DNA of 64,000 nucleotides, from NCBI GenBank assembly GCA_041669265.1, contig JBAYBM010000005.1:1444-65443 (forward strand), in the 5' to 3' direction. The notes under the pieces are model-generated. The model was given only the letters and a program-made list of their open reading frames with translations. It did not search any database and was not told the DNA's origin. This document shows, piece by piece, positions 5,640-53,763 of the stretch. A program made the translations under genes and the position numbers. Positions within the stretch are counted from its first letter, which is position 1. The number at the start of each line of letters is the position of its first letter. This stretch comes from Bacilli bacterium. Lineage in GTDB: Bacteria; Bacillota_I; Bacilli_A; RFN20; CAG-826.

Positions 5640-5715
5640 TGGTTGAGGCGGGTGGGTTCGAACCACCGTATGTAGGTTTCAGAGACCTATGACTTTACCA
5701 CTTGTCTACGCCTCA
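5640..5715 (-). tRNA. tRNA-Gln (anticodon CUG), CCA encoded
   Basis: Acceptor stem TGAGGCG/CGCCTCA. Anticodon stem TAGGT/ACCTA with loop CTCTGAA (anticodon CTG). 5-nt variable loop. T arm GGTGG-TTCGAAC-CCACC. Discriminator A followed by CCA. Confidence 0.9.
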
Positions 5716-44039: not shown

Positions 44040-44064
44040 AAAATCTCACATTTTGTGAGATTTT
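44040..44064 (-). terminator. terminator of the STAS/PP2C operon
   Basis: AAAATCTCAC-ATTTT-GTGAGATTTT, followed by TTATTT on the minus strand. Confidence 0.75.
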
Positions 44065-44072
44065 ATATTTAA

Positions 44073-45263
44073 TTAATTCGCTTTAAAATCTAAACTATCG
44101 ATTCGAGACAATAAATCACTTAAGGCTTTCTTACAATATTCTACAATTGGCTTCCCTTCTGGTGTATCTATACCAATTCTTTTTATTGTTCTTCTCATTA
44201 AACGAATATTTGCTACTACTTTTGCTTTGTCTAGTACTTCATTAACTACTTTATCATCTGTTGTATTTAAGTATTGCTTCATAGCATTAATAAAGAAATA
44301 TTCAGCTACATCAGCTTTGATGCCTAAGAATTTTTCAACATTATTTTTATCTACTACACCAAATCCTTCAAAAGCTAGATACATTGAAGATATTTCAAAA
44401 ATTGGATGGCCCATTGCTAATGTATCCATATCGATTAACAATACTTCATTATTTTGCATCATTATATTTTTAGTATGATAATCTCCATGAATCATTGTAT
44501 CTCTATCTGGAATAGCATTAAATAATGCTAATGCTTTATCATATTGATCTTTTGGTAAATAGTCTTTTAAATACTTAACCCACTCAATAGCCACTTCTTT
44601 TTGATTTGGCATATCTCCTGGTTTCACTTTAGTCGAATGAATTTTCTTCAATAAATCAACATATAATTTAATATACTTATCATTGTTTTTTGGATCTTCA
44701 TTTAGTAATTTTGTAAAACTCTTAGCATTTAAAAGTTCAAATACTGAGCCATATCCTTTACCAACTTTAACTACATCATAAGGAATTGCAGTTGGAATGC
44801 CTAAAAAAAATGCTTTACGAGCTAATTCTCTTTCACGATTAATTTCTGGAAGAGCATCAGCATTATTATAAACTTTAATAATTGTGTCAGGATCAAGTCG
44901 ATATACTTTACCATTTGCTCCTTGACCAATAACTTCACATCCTTCTACAGAAATAACTCTAAATGCTTTTTCAATATGCATTAATTCAGAAAAACCAGTC
45001 ATTTCAAATACTTCATATACACTTGAAGAAACGTTTTTAATAACAAGTTCAGGATATGTTTTTGATAATCTTAAAATTACACGTAATCCTGCACTTGAAA
45101 TGTATTCAAGTTTCTCAGCATTAATTATTAAATCCTTGCCTTTAAAATTAGCTAGAAGAGCATTAATATCCTCTTCTACTTTTGGAGCATTTGTAGAATC
45201 AATATGACCAATTAAATCAATTGTTAATACTCCGTTTTCTTCTTTTCCGTTTACGTTTTCCAT
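44073..45263 (-). CDS. STAS domain fused to an APH/choline-kinase-type phosphotransferase (protein-kinase-like) domain
   Basis: Residues 1-100 form a STAS domain (EKLEYISSAGLRVILRL, EVFEMTGFSEL). Residues ~105-396 are kinase-like: Gly-loop IGQGANGKVY, IIKVY Lys, Brenner motif HGDYHTKNIM and LIDMD. Confidence 0.7.
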   Translation of the reverse strand: MENVNGKEENGVLTIDLIGHIDSTNAPKVEEDINALLANFKGKDLIINAEKLEYISSAGLRVILRLSKTYPELVIKNVSSSVYEVFEMTGFSELMHIEKAFRVISVEGCEVIGQGANGKVYRLDPDTIIKVYNNADALPEINRERELARKAFFLGIPTAIPYDVVKVGKGYGSVFELLNAKSFTKLLNEDPKNNDKYIKLYVDLLKKIHSTKVKPGDMPNQKEVAIEWVKYLKDYLPKDQYDKALALFNAIPDRDTMIHGDYHTKNIMMQNNEVLLIDMDTLAMGHPIFEISSMYLAFEGFGVVDKNNVEKFLGIKADVAEYFFINAMKQYLNTTDDKVVNEVLDKAKVVANIRLMRRTIKRIGIDTPEGKPIVEYCKKALSDLLSRIDSLDFKAN

Positions 45264-45275
45264 ACATATCCCTTT

Positions 45276-47060
45276 CTATTTGTATTTCTTAGTAACAGTA
45301 ACAACATTATATTCACCATCTGCTTTATAAATAACAGTATCACATATTTTACGAACAATTAATAATCCTAAACCACCAATTTTTCTATCTTTGATTGGTG
45401 CATTAATATCGGGTTCTTCACTTTTTGTTATATCAAATAAAGTACCTTTATATTTAAGTTCCATCTCAATTGTTGCTCCATCAGTATTAACAACAAACTC
45501 TAAATCATTACTTCCTGAATATTTCACAACATTAGAGAATAATTCATCAAGAACTATATCCATTTTATTAACTACTTCAGTTGGAACATTACTCTTATTT
45601 AATTTTTCTTCCATATATGAAGCGACTTTTTCAAAATTTTCTGTTTTTGCTTCTACTAATAATGGATGCTCACAATTATTAATTTTTAACGCTAACATAG
45701 TCATATCATCTGAATGTTCAATTCCATTAATAAATTTTTTAACATCATCACCAATTAAATTAATTGCATCATTAGGATGTAATTTTTTATCCATATCATT
45801 AACTAATTTAATTAATCTATCTTCGCCATATTGTTCTTTATTAATATTCATTGCTTCAGTAATACCATCAGTATAAAGGAATATTCTATCATCATTATTA
45901 AGTTGCATTTCATATTGCTTATATACTGTTTTATCACTTCCAGCTAATACTAATCCTGAATATTTTCTTAAATATACAAATGGTTCATTATTACTACAAA
46001 TTAATGGAGGATTATGGCCACAATTTACATATGTTAATTTATTTGTACTTATTTCTAATACACCAATCCAACAAGTAACGAACATATGCTGCTCATTTCC
46101 CTCAAGTAATTTTATATTTGCCTTTGTCATTGCAAGAGCTAAACTGTCCTTAGATTGAACACAACTCTTGATTAATGTCTTCGCAATGACCATAAATAAT
46201 GCAGCAGGAACACCTTTTCCTGAAACATCAGCAATTAAGAAAGCAAAATGATCATCATCAACAAAGAAGAAATCATAGAAATCTCCACCAACTTCTTTTG
46301 CTGGTTCCATCGAAGCAAAAATTGAGAATTCTTTTCTTCCTGGAAAATCTGGGAATATTTTAGGCAACATAGAATCTTGAATATTGTATGCAACATTTAA
46401 TTCCGACTCTATTTGTTTAGTATGTGCCTCATTCTTACGTAATTTTCTAATATAGTTTTGTACATAAATTAATACACCATAAGCAATAGCATTACTTAAA
46501 ATAAGATATATAGTCAATTTAGAAATTGTTGACCAAGCATCACTAACTGGTTCAATTATACAAAGATATCCAAATGCAATTAATAAATGCATTACTTCAA
46601 ATCCTGCTCCAGAAAGCATTGCCCATAATGCTTGATGTTTTGTTTTTCTTATTGGTTTACTTAATAATCCACTTAATAAACCTATTAATATTGTAGCAAT
46701 TGCACATGGTATAGAAGTACCAACAGTAACATCTGGTAAACCTACTAATAATCTATGAGTTCCTGCAATAACTCCAGCAATAAGGCCTCCAATTGGTCCG
46801 CCCATAAATCCAGCCATCATTGCACCAACATCACGAATAGTAACAACAACTCCACTTTGCATTGTATATCCACTTATCGTGGCATATATCCCAAATAATC
46901 CACCAACAACACCATAAAAGATAACTCTAATCCAACGATTATTATCTCCCCTTAATTTAGCGATACTATGAATGCTCTCTAAAAATATAGCTACTAAATC
47001 AATAACAGCAATTGTTCCAATTAAGTAAACAATCATCTTTACTACTTGATTCCAATCCAT
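45276..47060 (-). CDS. 5TM (LytS-YhcK type) receptor + PP2C/SpoIIE phosphatase + RsbW/SpoIIAB-like GHKL Ser-kinase fusion
   Basis: The N-terminal ~200 aa are polytopic (TIRDVGAMMAGFMGGPIGG..THR). PP2C motifs are GGDFYDFF, ADVSGKGVPAALFM and TDGITEA. The C-terminal ~130 aa carry N-box DELFSNVVKY and G-box GGLGLLIV. Confidence 0.8.
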   Translation of the reverse strand: MDWNQVVKMIVYLIGTIAVIDLVAIFLESIHSIAKLRGDNNRWIRVIFYGVVGGLFGIYATISGYTMQSGVVVTIRDVGAMMAGFMGGPIGGLIAGVIAGTHRLLVGLPDVTVGTSIPCAIATILIGLLSGLLSKPIRKTKHQALWAMLSGAGFEVMHLLIAFGYLCIIEPVSDAWSTISKLTIYLILSNAIAYGVLIYVQNYIRKLRKNEAHTKQIESELNVAYNIQDSMLPKIFPDFPGRKEFSIFASMEPAKEVGGDFYDFFFVDDDHFAFLIADVSGKGVPAALFMVIAKTLIKSCVQSKDSLALAMTKANIKLLEGNEQHMFVTCWIGVLEISTNKLTYVNCGHNPPLICSNNEPFVYLRKYSGLVLAGSDKTVYKQYEMQLNNDDRIFLYTDGITEAMNINKEQYGEDRLIKLVNDMDKKLHPNDAINLIGDDVKKFINGIEHSDDMTMLALKINNCEHPLLVEAKTENFEKVASYMEEKLNKSNVPTEVVNKMDIVLDELFSNVVKYSGSNDLEFVVNTDGATIEMELKYKGTLFDITKSEEPDINAPIKDRKIGGLGLLIVRKICDTVIYKADGEYNVVTVTKKYK

Positions 47061-47064
47061 AAGA

Positions 47065-47361
47065 TTAACCTATATTTAATATTGAAGAAAATCCTGTCAT
47101 ATCAAAGACTTCTTTAACTTCTTCTTTGATATTAATTATCTTCATATTTTCTTTCCCTTCAATAGCATTAGAAGTTGTTAAAAACACTCTAAGACCAGCT
47201 GAAGAAACATAATCTACATCTTTTAAATCAATTATTAGTTCTTTAGATTTACCTAAAACACCATTGATTTCTTTTTCAAAATCAGCAGCAGTTTGTGAGT
47301 TAATACTTCCACTAACAGTTAGAGTACAAGTATCACCAGTTATTTTTGAACTTATATTCAT
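47065..47361 (-). CDS. STAS-domain anti-sigma-factor-antagonist-like protein
   Basis: 98 aa from the ATG at 47361 (AGGAG upstream). The phospho-acceptor region is DVDYVSSAGLRVFL, followed by EVFDMTGFSSIL. Confidence 0.8.
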   Translation of the reverse strand: MNISSKITGDTCTLTVSGSINSQTAADFEKEINGVLGKSKELIIDLKDVDYVSSAGLRVFLTTSNAIEGKENMKIINIKEEVKEVFDMTGFSSILNIG

Positions 47362-47518
47362 ATGATAACTCCTATCTTTATAATTATACACTTTGGAGTA
47401 AAATTCTTGAATTGTTTGCTTAAAAATTTATTTTAAGAAAATAATTAATTTACCTTTTAGGATAATATATGACATAATAATGTTATAAAAGTGTTATATT
47501 ACTAAAAAGGGGATTGTT

Positions 47519-49387
47519 ATGATTGTTTACCACAAAAGTAAAAGTGAATTTGATAATGATGTTATGAATAATGCAATTGCTGATCAAGTAAAAGAAGAAC
47601 TAGCAAGACATGGATATAATGATAATAATCAAAGAGAATTCAATTCATGGCAAAATAGTTTAACATTCATGAAAATTGCTCTTGAAGATAAAGAAATACC
47701 TTTAGATTGTGATATTTCAATTGAATATCAAATTCCACAAACTTCAAAAAGAGTTGATTTTATAATTACAGGAGCAGATAAAAATAATATTGATAATGTT
47801 GTAATTGTAGAATTAAAACAATGGCAAAAAGCCACTAAAATAGATGACATACAAGAACATAGTGTAATGACTCAAGTTGGAGGAGGTCTTCGAAGCGAAG
47901 CCCATCCTTCTTACCAAGCTTATAGTTATGCAATGTTAATAAAAGGATATTCTCAAGTAGTAAATGATTTTGATATGAAAATAGCTCCTTGTGCTTATTT
48001 ACATAATTTTGATACTAAGAATGGAAATGTATTAAATGACCCAATATATAAAACATGGTATATAGAAGCTCCTTTCTTTACTAAAGAGCAAAGAAAACAA
48101 TTTACAGATTTTATAAAAGCTCATATTTATAAAAAAAGTAGTAATGGAGATTTACTATATAAAATTGAAGGTGGAAGAATACATCCTACTAAAGCATTAC
48201 AAGATTGCTTAGCTTCAATGTTAAAAGGAAACCAAGAATTTACCCTTATTGATGATCAAATTACTATTTATGATAAATGTGTTAAGGCAATGGTTGATAC
48301 TGATTACGATAAAGATAAAAGAGTAATTATCATTAAAGGTGGCCCAGGAACAGGTAAATCTGTAGTAGCAATAAACTTATTATGTAAACTATTAAAAAAA
48401 GGATACAACGCATGTTATGTTACTAAAAATAGCGCCCCTAGAAATTGTTATTTAAATTTATTAGGAAAAGATGATGAACTTAAGAAGGTGGCAATTAAAG
48501 GTTTATTTAAGTCTCCTTTTGGTTTATCTAATTCTCCTCGTGATGCTTATGATTGTTTAATAGTAGATGAAGCACATAGATTAGTTAATAAAATGTATGG
48601 AGATTGGAATGGAGTTAATCAAATTAAAGAATGTATTGATTCTAGTAAATTAACTATATTTTTTATTGATGAAGATCAAAGAATAACAACTAAAGATATA
48701 GGAACAATAAAATCTATAAGAGATTGGGCACATGAATTAGGTGTTCATAATGAAAACATATATTTTGGAGATGAATACATATTAAAATCACAATTTAGAT
48801 GTAATGGAAGTGATGGATTTATTTCTTTTATTGATAATATTTTATATGGTAGAGAAACCGCAAATAATATATTTGATTTAGAAGATTTTGATTTTGAAAT
48901 ATTTAATGATCCTAATATGATGAGAGAAAAACTAAGAGAAAAAAATAATATAAATAATAAAGCTAGAATGGTAGCTGGATATTGTTTTGATTGGAATGTA
49001 AAAAATAAAAGAGGCGAATATGACATATATTTACCAAACGGATTCCAAGCAAAATGGAATTTATTAGGAGATAATATTTGGGCAATAAATAAAAAATCAT
49101 TCGAAGAAGTGGGTTGTATTCATACATGTCAAGGAATGGAATTTGATTATGTTGGAGTAATTATTGGTGATGATTTAATTTATAGAGATAATAAAGTAGA
49201 AACCAATAGAAATGCTATATCAAATGATGATAAATCAAGTGGAATTAAACACTCAAAAGATACCTATTTATCAGATACTCTAATTAGAAACACTTATAAA
49301 GTATTATTAACAAGAGGCCAAAAAGGTTGTTATGTTTATTGTAAAGACAAAGCATTAAGCGATTATTTAAAAACAAAAATTAGATAA
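47519..49387 (+). CDS. PD-(D/E)xK nuclease-like N-domain + DUF2075 / Schlafen-group-III-type P-loop helicase
   Basis: 622 aa. E68..D80(RVDFIITG)..E98-x-K100 (VIVELKQW). Walker A GGPGTGKS, Walker B LIVDEAHR, and late helicase motifs HTCQGMEFDYVGVIIGDDL and LLTRGQKGCYVY. Confidence 0.75.
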   Translation: MIVYHKSKSEFDNDVMNNAIADQVKEELARHGYNDNNQREFNSWQNSLTFMKIALEDKEIPLDCDISIEYQIPQTSKRVDFIITGADKNNIDNVVIVELKQWQKATKIDDIQEHSVMTQVGGGLRSEAHPSYQAYSYAMLIKGYSQVVNDFDMKIAPCAYLHNFDTKNGNVLNDPIYKTWYIEAPFFTKEQRKQFTDFIKAHIYKKSSNGDLLYKIEGGRIHPTKALQDCLASMLKGNQEFTLIDDQITIYDKCVKAMVDTDYDKDKRVIIIKGGPGTGKSVVAINLLCKLLKKGYNACYVTKNSAPRNCYLNLLGKDDELKKVAIKGLFKSPFGLSNSPRDAYDCLIVDEAHRLVNKMYGDWNGVNQIKECIDSSKLTIFFIDEDQRITTKDIGTIKSIRDWAHELGVHNENIYFGDEYILKSQFRCNGSDGFISFIDNILYGRETANNIFDLEDFDFEIFNDPNMMREKLREKNNINNKARMVAGYCFDWNVKNKRGEYDIYLPNGFQAKWNLLGDNIWAINKKSFEEVGCIHTCQGMEFDYVGVIIGDDLIYRDNKVETNRNAISNDDKSSGIKHSKDTYLSDTLIRNTYKVLLTRGQKGCYVYCKDKALSDYLKTKIR

Positions 49388-51870: not shown

Positions 51871-52545
51871 ATGAAAGTATTAATTATAGAGGATAAAATC
51901 CTTCTTACAGATGCCATTAACGAATATTTAACTAATAAAAAAATATTAGTAAAAGTATGTAATAATGGCTTAAAAGGGTATGAAGAAGCCCTTAATAATA
52001 TTTATGATGTAATAGTTTTAGATATTATGCTTCCTGGAAAAAATGGTTTAGATATCTTAAAAGATTTAAGAAGTAATAATATTAATACTCCTATATTAAT
52101 GTTAAGTGCTTTAAGTGAAGTAAGTGATAAAGTTAAAGGATTAACACTAGGAGCAGATGATTATTTAGCAAAACCATTTGCAATGGATGAATTACTTGCA
52201 AGATTAAAAGTATTAACTAGAAGAAAAGGTGAAATATTAGATAATGAACTTAAAGTTGGTGATTTAACTTTAAATAAAGATACTCATGAATTACATAAAG
52301 ATAGTGAAACTATATTATTAGGTTATAAAGAATATGAAATATTCTCTTTATTAATGGAAAAATATCCAAATCAAATTAATAAAGACTATTTATTAGATAA
52401 AGTATTGGGATATGATAATGATTCTTTATATAATAGTGTTGAAGTATATATATCCTTTTTAAGACGTAAATTAAAAGCTTTAAAAAGTAATGTATCTATA
52501 AAATCCATACGTAGTTTGGGGTACTTATTAGAAGTAGAAAAGTAA
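51871..52545 (+). CDS. OmpR-family response regulator
   Basis: Receiver domain (IIEDK, VLDIMLPG, AKPF) plus a winged helix (SIRSLGYLLE). Confidence 0.9.
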   Translation: MKVLIIEDKILLTDAINEYLTNKKILVKVCNNGLKGYEEALNNIYDVIVLDIMLPGKNGLDILKDLRSNNINTPILMLSALSEVSDKVKGLTLGADDYLAKPFAMDELLARLKVLTRRKGEILDNELKVGDLTLNKDTHELHKDSETILLGYKEYEIFSLLMEKYPNQINKDYLLDKVLGYDNDSLYNSVEVYISFLRRKLKALKSNVSIKSIRSLGYLLEVEK

Positions 52546-52551
52546 AAATAT

Positions 52552-53763
52552 ATGAAAAAAGAAATAACAAAAGATGAAAAGATGTTTAAAAAAACCAGAA
52601 CAAAATTTATTGCTCTAGTTATGTCCATTATTGGATTAATTTTTGTTGCTTCTGATTCTTCTATTATTATTTATCAATATATAAACGAAAATAGCGAAAC
52701 TGAACGTAGTTTAACTATGGCTTTAAAAGATTTAAATGGAAATCACGATAGTAACATGAATCCAAATAATCCAATGGAAAACTTTAGAACATTTGCTATT
52801 AAAGTTAAAGAAGATAAAACATATGTCTTTGCTAATGGAGAAAACGCATATTCAAATTTTGTTGCTACTAATATTGGAACATTTTTAACTAATAAAAATG
52901 GAAATATTAGTTATGTATATTATGAAACATCTAATAGTACCGACGTTAATTACGATTATTTTATAGTAGGTACTGATAGATCAATTGAAAGAAGTACATT
53001 ACTTACTAATTCCTTAACAATGTCTGGCGCATTTCTTATTTCTTTTATTATTTTATTTATTGTAGTCACTTTGTTTTCTAAACAAATATTAAAACCTATA
53101 AAAGAGTCTATTAAAAAACAAAAAGAATTTGTTGCTGATGCATCTCATGAACTTAAAACACCTTTAACTATTATTGATGCTAATGCTTCAATCTTAAAAG
53201 AAAATAATACTGATAATAAATGGGTAAATAATATATTAAATGAAACTAAAAATATGAACAATATCATTTTAGATATGATTAGTTTAGTAAGTACAGAAGA
53301 AATAAATACCACTCTTTTACCTATTGATTTATCTACTCTTGTTAACAACATTGCCCTTTCTTTTGATGCAATATGTTATGAAAAAAGTATCGAATATAAA
53401 CTAAATATAAATGAAAATATAAATATAAATGGAAATCAAAAAGATGTAGAAAAAATAGTAAGAATATTATTAGATAACGCAATAAAATATGTATCTAATA
53501 AAGGAATTATTGATGTATCTTTAGCAAAGATAAAAAATAACATTTATTTTGCTGTTTATAATTCTGGATGCACTATTAAAAATGAAAATAGAGAAAAAAT
53601 ATTTGATAGATTTTATAGAGATGATGAATCTAGAGATACTACTGTTGCAAAAGGAAGTGGCTTAGGTTTAGCAATATTAAAAGAAATATCTGATAAATAT
53701 AATTATAAAATTGTTGTAGAAAGTGAAGAAAACGTCTTCTTTAAAATATCTATAAAATTCTAA
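52552..53763 (+). CDS. sensor histidine kinase (HisKA/HATPase)
   Basis: 2 TM, H-box FVADASHELKTPLT, N-box LLDNAIKY and G-box GSGLGLAI. Confidence 0.85.
   Translation: MKKEITKDEKMFKKTRTKFIALVMSIIGLIFVASDSSIIIYQYINENSETERSLTMALKDLNGNHDSNMNPNNPMENFRTFAIKVKEDKTYVFANGENAYSNFVATNIGTFLTNKNGNISYVYYETSNSTDVNYDYFIVGTDRSIERSTLLTNSLTMSGAFLISFIILFIVVTLFSKQILKPIKESIKKQKEFVADASHELKTPLTIIDANASILKENNTDNKWVNNILNETKNMNNIILDMISLVSTEEINTTLLPIDLSTLVNNIALSFDAICYEKSIEYKLNINENININGNQKDVEKIVRILLDNAIKYVSNKGIIDVSLAKIKNNIYFAVYNSGCTIKNENREKIFDRFYRDDESRDTTVAKGSGLGLAILKEISDKYNYKIVVESEENVFFKISIKF

Follow-up and report, generated by a model that had tools for sequence, protein, structure and literature searches.

What does a partner switch control when no sigma factor is encoded beside it? 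The question is raised by a three-gene operon in a 64,000-nucleotide (nt) stretch of DNA from a Bacilli bacterium (GTDB lineage Bacillota_I; Bacilli_A; RFN20; CAG-826; GenBank assembly GCA_041669265.1, contig JBAYBM010000005.1, positions 1,444 to 65,443 of the forward strand), which as a whole is called the window here. The operon lies at window positions 44073-47391 on the minus strand. It encodes a small STAS protein, a membrane sensor with phosphatase and RsbW-like GHKL domains, and a second STAS domain fused to a kinase of the APH/ELK fold. We hold, with a little better than even confidence, that this is a self-contained partner-switching operon that lacks a sigma factor and has an enzyme as its output.

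The operon and its three proteins

The listing of open reading frames (ORFs) gives three close-packed genes, all on the minus strand, at 47065-47391, 45276-47060 and 44073-45263, separated by gaps of 4 and 12 nt. This co-directional arrangement, with its own upstream region and terminator, had been described in a first-pass annotation made from the sequence alone, and it is borne out by the ORFs and by a hairpin at 44040-44064 (minus strand). The latter is an intrinsic terminator with an 11-bp stem, a 3-nt loop and a T-run, located 8 nt after the last stop codon, in a region where 3 terminator-like sites were observed against 0.7 expected. Since the unit has its own terminator, the gene downstream (a GH3 glycosidase) has its own strong promoter match and the upstream neighbour runs divergently, it is read as a self-contained three-gene operon. 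The G+C content of its DNA is ~28%.

All Pfam matches of the operon proteins were judged by gathering cut-offs, and every domain named below is above them. The first gene encodes a single-domain STAS protein of 98 amino acids (aa), as had been proposed (47065-47361, minus strand; Pfam STAS, 62.6 bits; NCBIfam TIGR00377, 68.7 bits with a cut-off of 53.45). Its acceptor Ser is S54, in the motif SSAGLR (nt 47188-47205), and it thus supplies the single-domain STAS protein with a phosphorylatable Ser that belongs to a partner switch. The loop SSAGLRV is common to this protein and to the fused STAS domain of the third gene, in which SSAGLR (S56 and S57; 45081-45098, minus strand) is invariant in an alignment of 21 homologues. 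The second Ser of the loop, S54 in the small and S57 in the fused STAS, aligns with the phospho-Ser of SpoIIAA, so that the shared phospho-acceptor context noted at first reading holds. NCBIfam names both domains 'anti-sigma factor antagonist', above cut-off. Conservation of the Ser, on which the earlier interpretation depended, is nearly complete: SSxGLR is kept by every one of the 83 fused STAS domains of the loci surveyed below, by 48 of their 49 small ones, and in 111 of 120 representative clusters that contain STAS.

The two STAS domains of the window are 39% identical to each other. Across loci, the small and the fused domains fall into two reciprocally distinct groups, the nearest neighbour of a domain being always of its own type; identity is 53-54% within a type, 36% between types and 37% for pairs from the same locus. 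Because nearest neighbours are of the same type and pairs from one locus are no closer than others, we regard the two as ancient paralogues that travel together.

The second gene (45276-47060, minus strand) encodes a membrane sensor-phosphatase of 594 aa. The first-pass annotation had recognized in it a 5TM receptor, a PP2C/SpoIIE phosphatase and an RsbW-like GHKL domain, and Pfam places all three, above gathering, with the borders that had been drawn. Residues 4-202 contain about 6-7 hydrophobic segments, and the 5TM-5TMR_LYT sensor domain, of S-component fold, spans aa 38-200 (46461-46949, minus strand; PF07694, 91.2 bits against 24.6). The protein therefore has the membrane domain of LytS/YhcK-type receptors. 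Unlike these histidine-kinase receptors it has no HisKA domain, and its output consists of PP2C and HATPase_c_2. The 5TMR-LYT domain type has an S-component fold and in BtsS binds pyruvate (PMC11109136, PMC10653868). Fusions of 5TMR to PPM phosphatases have been described as prevalent in archaea rather than bacteria (PMC11109136, 2024). A search with the window protein returned at least 8000 matches; among the matches listed, all those with a named source were bacterial (Bacilli, Clostridia, Erysipelotrichia, Solobacterium).

The PP2C/SpoIIE phosphatase domain occupies aa 268-460 (45681-46259, minus strand; PF07228, 158 bits). Its metal-binding acidic motifs GGDFYD, DVSGKG, YTDG and SDDMT are intact and align with those of SiaA (6k4e) and RssB (3eq2), so the phosphatase expected of a partner switch is present. 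Its closest solved relatives are the partner-switch phosphatases RssB (3eq2/3es2), Rv1364c (3ke6, the third-best match to a solved structure, E 3.6e-9) and SiaA (6k4e, the fourth-best PDB match). The NCBIfam equivalog cut-offs for RssB (53 bits against 700), SiaA (42.5 against 700) and SpoIIE (30.1 against 490.8) were missed, and the curated RsbW threshold was likewise not reached by the operon proteins.

At the C-terminus of the sensor-phosphatase is a HATPase_c_2 domain, RsbW/SpoIIAB-like GHKL, at aa 470-591 (45288-45653, minus strand; PF13581, 54.4 bits against 27.4). It retains an N-box (DELFSN) and a G2 box (GGLGL), and its G1 box, KYKGTLFD (45432-45455, minus strand), is non-canonical, with Tyr537 in the position of the Asp in the DEG motif of RsbW and SpoIIAB. 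A single-sequence search of the PDB with the window GHKL domain gave no match, and a profile was required; this found RsbW (6m36, E 2.8e-11) and SpoIIAB (1til, E 7.6e-6), along with 1l0o and 1th8. The alignment behind the profile includes one harmless junk row of 33 aa (L076:2000-2100; the loci of the survey are given as L numbers). The register of the G1 box relative to RsbW and SpoIIAB is confirmed by the PDB profile alignment, which puts Tyr537 exactly at the Asp. Most GHKL domains that adjoin STAS-APH genes have a canonical G1 box, F-I/V-D-x-G-x-P-F/Y-D/N-P; in the window and its nearest relatives this is replaced by Y-x-G...F/Y-D-x-T. The Tyr is found in all three-domain homologues of the 594-aa protein at >=46% identity, and the Asp in more distant ones. 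GHKL ATPases use the G1-box Asp to contact the adenine of ATP and normally cannot do without it. In the Tyr-type domains the N-box Glu/Asn and the G2 box are nonetheless conserved, which suggests that these domains may still bind nucleotide.

The third gene (44073-45263, minus strand) encodes the STAS-kinase fusion, of 396 aa. Its STAS domain (aa 7-99; 54.7 bits) is joined directly, via a very short linker, to a kinase of the APH/ELK fold (aa 105-396), within which the Pfam APH match starts at aa 110 and reaches 61.7 bits against a cut-off of 23.2. The Gly loop GQGANG (44910-44927; G113, G115 and G118), K130 (44868-44882), E144, the catalytic loop H259-G-D-Y-H-x-x-N266 (HGDYHTKN, aa 259-266) and the metal-binding I277-D-M-D280 (IDMD, aa 277-280), the last two at 44424-44489, all on the minus strand, are invariant in the same alignment, whose 21 homologues are 58-81% identical. 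The earlier description of a STAS domain followed by an APH-type kinase with intact motifs is thus confirmed by Pfam and by the alignment, and the C-terminal domain has lost neither its kinase-like character nor its catalytic residues. An AlphaFold2 model of the fusion (predicted local distance difference test, pLDDT, 90.3; predicted template modelling score, pTM, 0.75) matches, with a Foldseek probability of 1.0 and 11-18% identity, 5-methylthioribose (MTR) kinase, capreomycin phosphotransferase, APH(2''), APH(3'), macrolide phosphotransferase (MPH) and the amicoumacin kinase AmiN.

At the level of sequence, a search of the PDB returned no solved kinase better than E 0.21. The nearest NCBIfam family is TIGR02172 (APH-like paralogous family), at 128.5 bits below its cut-off of 228.2, and JGI annotations label homologues by this name. 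Weak NCBIfam similarities connect the kinase with the APH-fold protein kinases SrkA, CotS, CotI and Bud32. Profile match, bilobal fold and catalytic residues are those of the APH/ELK family, and the domain is best described as a competent-looking ELK/APH-fold kinase without a characterised close relative. With the small-molecule kinases of this family it shares the bilobal fold, the Gly loop, the Lys-Glu pair, the HxDxxxxN loop and the metal-binding Asp; unlike the window fusion, these enzymes have neither an N-terminal STAS domain nor a signalling context.

The APH match and the presence of APH(2''), APH(3'), capreomycin, macrolide and amicoumacin kinases among the top Foldseek matches bring to mind a regulated kinase for resistance to antibiotics such as aminoglycosides, macrolides or tuberactinomycins. 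We consider this very improbable. Identities to those enzymes are 11-18%, the NCBIfam resistance models are not reached (APH_3p, 18 bits against 205; APH_6, 15.4 against 325), and the gene is a conserved chromosomal one, found within signalling operons in hundreds of anaerobic commensal species, for which no link to mobile elements was seen.

The kinase also has an Arg-rich helix in its C-lobe, RLMRRTI(K/R)R (aa 354-362; window 44178-44204, minus strand), of which R357, R358 and R362 are invariant, with R354 almost invariant. The helix might form the wall of a pocket that takes an anionic substrate or phospho-Ser; the overall charge supports no conclusion. An argument for an anionic substrate from these four Arg residues was dropped, as the kinase domains of the family are on the whole acidic, with a mean net charge of -12 (that of the window has 0).

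Sigma factors and the neighbours of the kinase family

Sigma factors were sought with sigma-70-family probes (RpoD, SigB and RpoE regions), whose matches were confirmed by Pfam. Applied to every ORF, the probes found no sigma-70-family gene in the operon, as had been stated at first reading, nor in the whole window. The comparison was extended to 84 non-redundant loci, the window included, 80 of which are the best-scoring of at least 589 genomes that carry a relative and are therefore not a random sample. Among all the ORFs of these loci only three genes, of the extracytoplasmic function (ECF) type, were matched, each more than 4 kb from the fusion gene. Pfam confirmed these three as true sigma factors, so that they serve as a positive control for the probes. 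Homologous operons are thus not regularly followed by a sigma factor, and a linked sigma factor as sequestered target, which the classical partner switch usually has, was found neither in the window nor beside the module in the 84 loci. Clustering of the unlabelled neighbours in the 84 loci brought out no hidden recurrent regulator; it gave mostly antisense artefacts and generic ABC ATPases, and one notable cluster, of SDF transporters, which is described below.

These results bear on the possibility of a conventional anti-sigma system, in which the GHKL domain would sequester a sigma factor encoded elsewhere and the STAS-kinase would be a second antagonist. The part of the genome in view is 64 kb, the databases use the names 'anti-sigma factor antagonist' and 'anti-sigma regulatory factor', and HsbR was long thought to have no sigma target until binding of RpoS was reported (PMC6482189). 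We nevertheless judge such a system improbable, given the lack of a sigma factor in the window or next to the module in the 84 loci, the tethering of the GHKL domain to the membrane via the sensor, and a conserved, catalytically intact kinase domain that would be left without a role.

The family to which the STAS-APH fusion belongs is large. Scanning one genome per species found relatives in at least 589 species-representative genomes, mostly of Clostridia (Oscillospiraceae, Lachnospiraceae, Acutalibacteraceae) and Erysipelotrichia (Solobacterium, Bulleidia). The carriers are mostly gut and rumen Firmicutes, largely uncultured, with Flavonifractor, Coprococcus catus and Solobacterium among those named, and close homologues are annotated as Faecalibacterium. 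A homologue search with the fusion gave at least 8000 STAS+APH-type candidates, the top 120 of which are all ~390 aa long with STAS and APH domains. An exhaustive search with the kinase domain by itself found proteins that group into 507 clusters at 50% identity (E <= 1e-30); among the 150 best of these, the kinase is fused to STAS in 120. A split form also exists, in which an 80-aa STAS gene lies 30 nt upstream of a seemingly standalone kinase.

Neighbours were defined as genes on the same strand within 9 kb of STAS-APH; all ORFs were labelled with phmmer probes, and counts were repeated for the 46 well-flanked loci that have at least 5 kb on both flanks. Co-occurrence with partner-switch parts, which the first-pass annotation had put up for checking, is seen. 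A GHKL domain is near STAS-APH in 57 of 84 loci (30 of the 46 well-flanked), a small STAS in 50 (29 of 46) and PP2C in 46 (26 of 46), and PP2C is fused to GHKL in 36 of 84 and 21 of 46. A gene for an HD_4 protein is equally frequent, in 57 of 84 loci and 28 of the 46. L005, L008 and L090 contain a three-gene module identical in make-up to that of the window.

Besides STAS-APH, the kinase family includes the architectures GHKL-STAS-APH, STAS-APH-GHKL, HD_4-APH and HD-CE-STAS-APH, and further STAS-APH-PHP, STAS-APH with a PolyA_pol head, and Na+/H+ exchanger-STAS-APH. Triple fusions that join an RsbW-like domain to the STAS-kinase are found in L085:10277-11905 and in proteins P0242, P0247 and P0260.

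In a subset of loci (L001:9488-14554; L014, L020, L022, L028, L031) the module is extended by genes for Formyl_trans_N, LPG_synthase_C, MatE-HATPase_c_2 and a separate PP2C. The Formyl_trans_N proteins are closest to the fmt/ArnA type, and LPG_synthase_C is the aminoacyl-tRNA-dependent transferase domain of MprF. The MatE proteins are transporters that bear HATPase_c_2 at their C-terminus, and transporters with such an RsbW-like domain suggest that transport may be regulated by STAS. The SDF (sodium:dicarboxylate symporter) proteins mentioned above, encoded on the same strand as STAS-APH and near it in L058:3924-5567 and seven other loci, have an N-terminal extension of ~135 aa, which by eye looks like a degenerate GHKL domain; Pfam makes no call.

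Such genes lead to the proposal that the kinase acts on an envelope precursor (a lipid, a sugar, or a head group that resembles choline or ethanolamine) and that the module is a switch for envelope homeostasis. The sensor is of the LytS/YhcK type; MatE-GHKL fusions occur in 13 of 84 loci, LPG_synthase_C in 8 and Formyl_trans_N in 7; the Na+/H+ exchanger fusion and the extended SDF transporters point the same way, and one distant relative has weak Choline_kinase and EcKL Pfam matches. We rate the proposal as rather unlikely. Envelope-type genes are present in ~8-15% of loci against ~61-68% for HD_4, the window operon has none of them, and the HD_4, PHP and nucleotidyltransferase partners are nucleotide enzymes.

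The output enzyme and its possible substrate

In most cases the HD_4 gene either lies directly against the STAS-APH gene or overlaps it, most gaps falling between -14 and +15 nt. Its product is of the RelA/SpoT-hydrolase type: it matches in the PDB the hydrolase domains of Rel/SpoT, Lmo0812 and Mesh1 at ~E 1e-21 to 1e-16, and it also matches the N-terminal hydrolase region of NCBIfam TIGR00691. This family-wide link to SAH-type HD_4 hydrolases, which the first-pass annotation did not see because the gene is missing from the window operon, is the strongest functional clue. The same two domains are also found in one polypeptide. A search with one HD_4-kinase fusion gave 505 proteins at E <= 1e-20, and 120 of the 120 listed consist of HD_4 and APH and are ~491 aa long. 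Their hosts are Lachnospiraceae, Ruminococcus, Oscillospiraceae, Coriobacteriia and Treponema sp. C6A8, and they are annotated merely as 'HD domain-containing protein' (L096:6001-7476, L099:6001-7476; P0391-P0509). Such a fusion is possibly a bifunctional kinase/phosphohydrolase. It contains no STAS domain; there are no partner-switch genes nearby in L096, and a 99-aa STAS gene follows it in L099.

The HD_4 hydrolases of Rel/SpoT, SAH and Mesh1 enzymes are homologous to the partner, or fused domain, of these kinase relatives, and the layout of the HD_4-kinase fusion mirrors that of Rel, an N-terminal hydrolase being followed by a domain that transfers phosphoryl groups. The second domain differs: it is an APH-fold kinase in the fusion, whereas in Rel it is a synthetase of the RelA/SpoT nucleotidyltransferase fold. 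Among the other partners, 3',5'-nucleoside-bisphosphate phosphatase and RNase AM-type enzymes are the nearest matches of the fused PHP domain, and PcnB and CCA-adding enzymes those of the fused nucleotidyltransferase head. Judged from these relatives, every enzymatic partner, HD_4, PHP and nucleotidyltransferase, would have as its target either the 2'/3' position of nucleotide ribose or the 3' end of an RNA.

The STAS-free HD_4-kinase fusions, and L096 in particular with its lack of partner-switch genes, argue for the kinase as regulated output and against a role confined to phosphorylating STAS; the STAS domain would then be a regulatory add-on. The chemistry of the partner enzymes and the existence of the kinase without STAS make it likelier that the substrate is nucleotide-like than that it is STAS itself, and the substrate is most likely a hydroxyl group of a small nucleotide-like molecule rather than a protein. 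We put forward tentatively, and at well under even confidence, a more specific form of this proposal. The STAS-tethered kinase may be a signal-gated kinase for the ribose 2'/3'-OH of a nucleotide or for the 3' end of RNA; it would yield an undescribed messenger of the alarmone kind, or else an RNA or tRNA with a blocked end, and SAH-type HD_4 or PHP enzymes would erase the mark.

The replacement of the G1-box Asp in the window GHKL domain permits a quite different assignment, in which the APH-fold domain is itself the STAS Ser kinase, for its own or for the free STAS. GHKL of the Tyr type would then serve for docking without catalysis, PP2C would reverse the phosphorylation, and the output would be whatever partner the free STAS binds elsewhere, as for SypA, HsbA and BtrV. 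The Tyr is conserved, and no other GHKL domain is encoded at the locus of the operon or in L005, L008 or L090. Intact PP2C motifs lead one to expect a phospho-substrate, the acceptor Ser is invariant, STAS is nearly always fused to the kinase or directly upstream of it, and the weak similarities to SrkA, CotS, CotI and Bud32 are to protein kinases. Anti-sigma GHKL proteins without kinase activity have been reported, such as UsfX of Mycobacterium tuberculosis. This assignment appears unlikely on balance. Most members of the family adjoin a GHKL domain with the canonical Asp, which would make a second STAS kinase redundant, and the N-box Glu/Asn and G2 box kept in the Tyr-type domains suggest binding of nucleotide. 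The same kinase family is fused to HD_4 without STAS, with none nearby in L096; the HD_4, PHP and nucleotidyltransferase partners point to nucleotide chemistry, and the best fold matches are small-molecule kinases.

For the kinase as output, the following mechanism can be envisaged. The 5TMR-LYT domain would sense a membrane-associated or extracellular ligand, and the signal would shift the balance between PP2C activity and the binding or kinase activity of GHKL. These two domains would set the phosphorylation or binding state of Ser54 and Ser57, in the small and the fused STAS respectively; depending on its state, the tethered STAS would switch the kinase on or off. In one form of the scheme the unphosphorylated tethered STAS docks on GHKL and so holds the kinase at the sensor, while the free STAS competes for the site; this would be a true partner switch with a kinase in place of the sigma factor. 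In another, phosphorylation would alter an intramolecular contact between STAS and kinase. The kinase would then phosphorylate its substrate, which is probably nucleotide-like. The arrangement of the genes, their domains, the conserved motifs, the lack of a linked sigma factor and the patterns of co-occurrence and fusion are observed; which enzyme phosphorylates the STAS Ser, in which direction the switch works and what the kinase acts on are inferred.

Several observations weigh against the kinase as the output of this switch. Since the G1-box Asp is replaced by a Tyr (Y537) that is conserved in its clade, the kinase competence of the window GHKL domain is uncertain, and if this domain cannot bind ATP the APH-fold domain is the sole obvious STAS kinase in the operon. 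Six of the 46 well-flanked STAS-APH loci have none of the parts counted above, MatE-GHKL included, and hence no partner-switch part. The converse also occurs, 5TMR-LYT-PP2C-GHKL proteins being encoded without STAS-APH in L089:6001-7851 and L091:5687-7806; one of the two is of the Tyr type with no STAS nearby, and the other is of the Asp type and has only MatE and a small STAS. From these loci the sensor-phosphatase and the STAS-kinase are taken to be separable modules, whose coupling is modular and not obligatory. As regards the substrate, none of the partner enzymes reaches the curated cut-off of any named NCBIfam family that it matches. There is, moreover, no HD_4 gene in the window operon, which differs in this from the Rel/SpoT-type pairs of its relatives, and the probe found none in the 64 kb; the argument on the substrate is thus borrowed from relatives whose kinases are 58-65% identical.

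The first-pass annotation had proposed that the kinase is the output of a switch without sigma factor and that either STAS might be a substrate of the fused kinase/phosphatase. The former is still the best-supported reading, and the interpretation as a whole is supported in part, in view of Tyr537 and of the HD_4 association. For the latter, the shared acceptor Ser stands, and the assignment of GHKL as the kinase is weakened by the conserved Tyr.

Surroundings and related systems

The start of the first gene deserves comment. The ORF is listed at 47065-47391 from a GTG, which would give 108 aa; from the ATG at 47361 it encodes 98 aa. A ribosome-binding site, AGGAG, read from the sequence at 47369-47373 (minus strand), precedes this ATG by 7 nt, and the GTG at 47391 falls within TGTATAAT, a putative extended -10 promoter element at 47383-47390 (minus strand) that was likewise inferred by direct reading. 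As the homologues are 96-109 aa long, the ATG is almost certainly the true start. The -35 element paired with TGTATAAT, TTCAAG at 47406-47411, is weak, and a consensus promoter scan did not list this promoter, the -35 matching the consensus at just 3 of 6 positions. Before the STAS-kinase gene, an AAAGGGA ribosome-binding site lies inside the 12-nt gap.

A role of the operon in anti-phage defence was considered and dropped, because PADLOC-DB gave no match for the three operon proteins or the HD_4 neighbour. The divergent upstream gene (47519-49387, plus strand) encodes a 622-aa helicase of the Schlafen group-3/DUF2075 type (Pfam SLFN-g3_helicase, E 1.9e-95) with PADLOC matches to the PDC-S41, Nhi and AbiO-like models. 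This gene is possibly a stand-alone one for anti-phage defence, with no apparent relation to the operon. At 51871-53763 (plus strand), 4.5 kb upstream of the operon, lie the genes for a 224-aa response regulator of the OmpR type and a 403-aa histidine kinase with HisKA and HATPase_c domains; no link to the operon is evident. The sole Rfam match at gathering level in the window is a tRNA gene (5643-5715, minus strand).

Several known systems resemble parts of the operon. In HsbR-HsbA of Pseudomonas aeruginosa and CrsR-CrsA of Shewanella, as in the window, PP2C and an RsbW-like GHKL domain in one polypeptide act on a separate STAS protein with a phosphorylatable Ser, and fused REC-PP2C-GHKL proteins are documented (PMC6482189). 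The outputs of HsbR/HsbA include an enzyme, the diguanylate cyclase HsbD (PMC6482189, PMC8457831). Their input is a REC domain fed by a phosphorelay, in place of the 5TMR-LYT membrane domain of the window; they have no second STAS fused to an enzyme; and sigma factors (RpoS; FliA via FlgM) are among their targets. SiaABCD of P. aeruginosa likewise has no sigma factor; it shares with the window a membrane PP2C, a kinase, a small partner protein that can be phosphorylated, and an output that is an enzyme (PMC8457831). There, SiaC is a Thr-phosphorylated DUF1987 protein that binds a diguanylate cyclase in trans, whereas the window STAS is covalently fused to the kinase.

Rv1364c of M. tuberculosis combines, like the operon, PP2C, an RsbW-like kinase and STAS. 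It differs in being cytoplasmic, with PAS input, in that its STAS is fused to the switch enzymes and not to an output enzyme, and in its link to SigF. SypE-SypA of Vibrio fischeri, BtrUVW and the Chlamydia Rsb system are also without sigma factor or have an uncertain sigma target (PMC3610818, PMC8256260, PMC11619594). SypE fuses a GHKL kinase with PP2C, and Chlamydia Rsb consists of a membrane sensor phosphatase and two RsbV paralogues; none of the three joins STAS to a catalytic domain, and the sensor domains are unlike that of the window. Multidomain STAS proteins, such as the SulP/SLC26 transporters and the STAS-glycosyltransferase all4160 of Anabaena, carry STAS in cis to an effector, as the window fusion does (PMC8256260). 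In the window the effector is a kinase, and the operon has its own PP2C and GHKL. The review of STAS domains that describes these proteins lists transporters and one glycosyltransferase as multidomain STAS proteins, and no kinase fusion (PMC8256260).

Sigma-less switches, enzyme outputs and PP2C-GHKL fusions are thus already known, the precedents being HsbR/HsbA/HsbD, SiaABCD, BgrR, SypE/SypA and Rv1364c, and the diguanylate cyclases HsbD, BgrR and SiaD have been listed as enzymes under the control of partner switches (PMC8457831). What would be new is a partner switch with a new combination of sensor and output. A literature search found no paper on a STAS-APH fusion, on TIGR02172 or on the combination of STAS, APH, SpoIIE and HATPase_c_2, which is consistent with the earlier remark that no experimental description of the arrangement was known; nor did it find a paper that links alarmone-hydrolase-like enzymes to STAS or to anti-sigma antagonists.

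Partner switching is the textbook means of sigma-factor control, and the cases in which it controls enzymes are few, mostly from Proteobacteria and mostly concerned with diguanylate cyclases. Here the switch domain is joined to a catalytically intact-looking kinase, in a family whose members the databases label only 'anti-sigma factor antagonist', 'phosphotransferase' or 'HD domain-containing protein', and which is present in 589 or more species-representative genomes. The replacement of Asp by Tyr in the GHKL pocket is a natural test of whether domains of the RsbW type can serve purely for docking. The repeated coupling and fusion of the kinase with a RelA/SpoT-type hydrolase is a concrete lead to a possible new nucleotide-signalling chemistry. 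If the proposed activity is correct, the system would be a kinase-based counterpart of the Rel synthetase/hydrolase pair under partner-switch control, widespread in gut and rumen Firmicutes.

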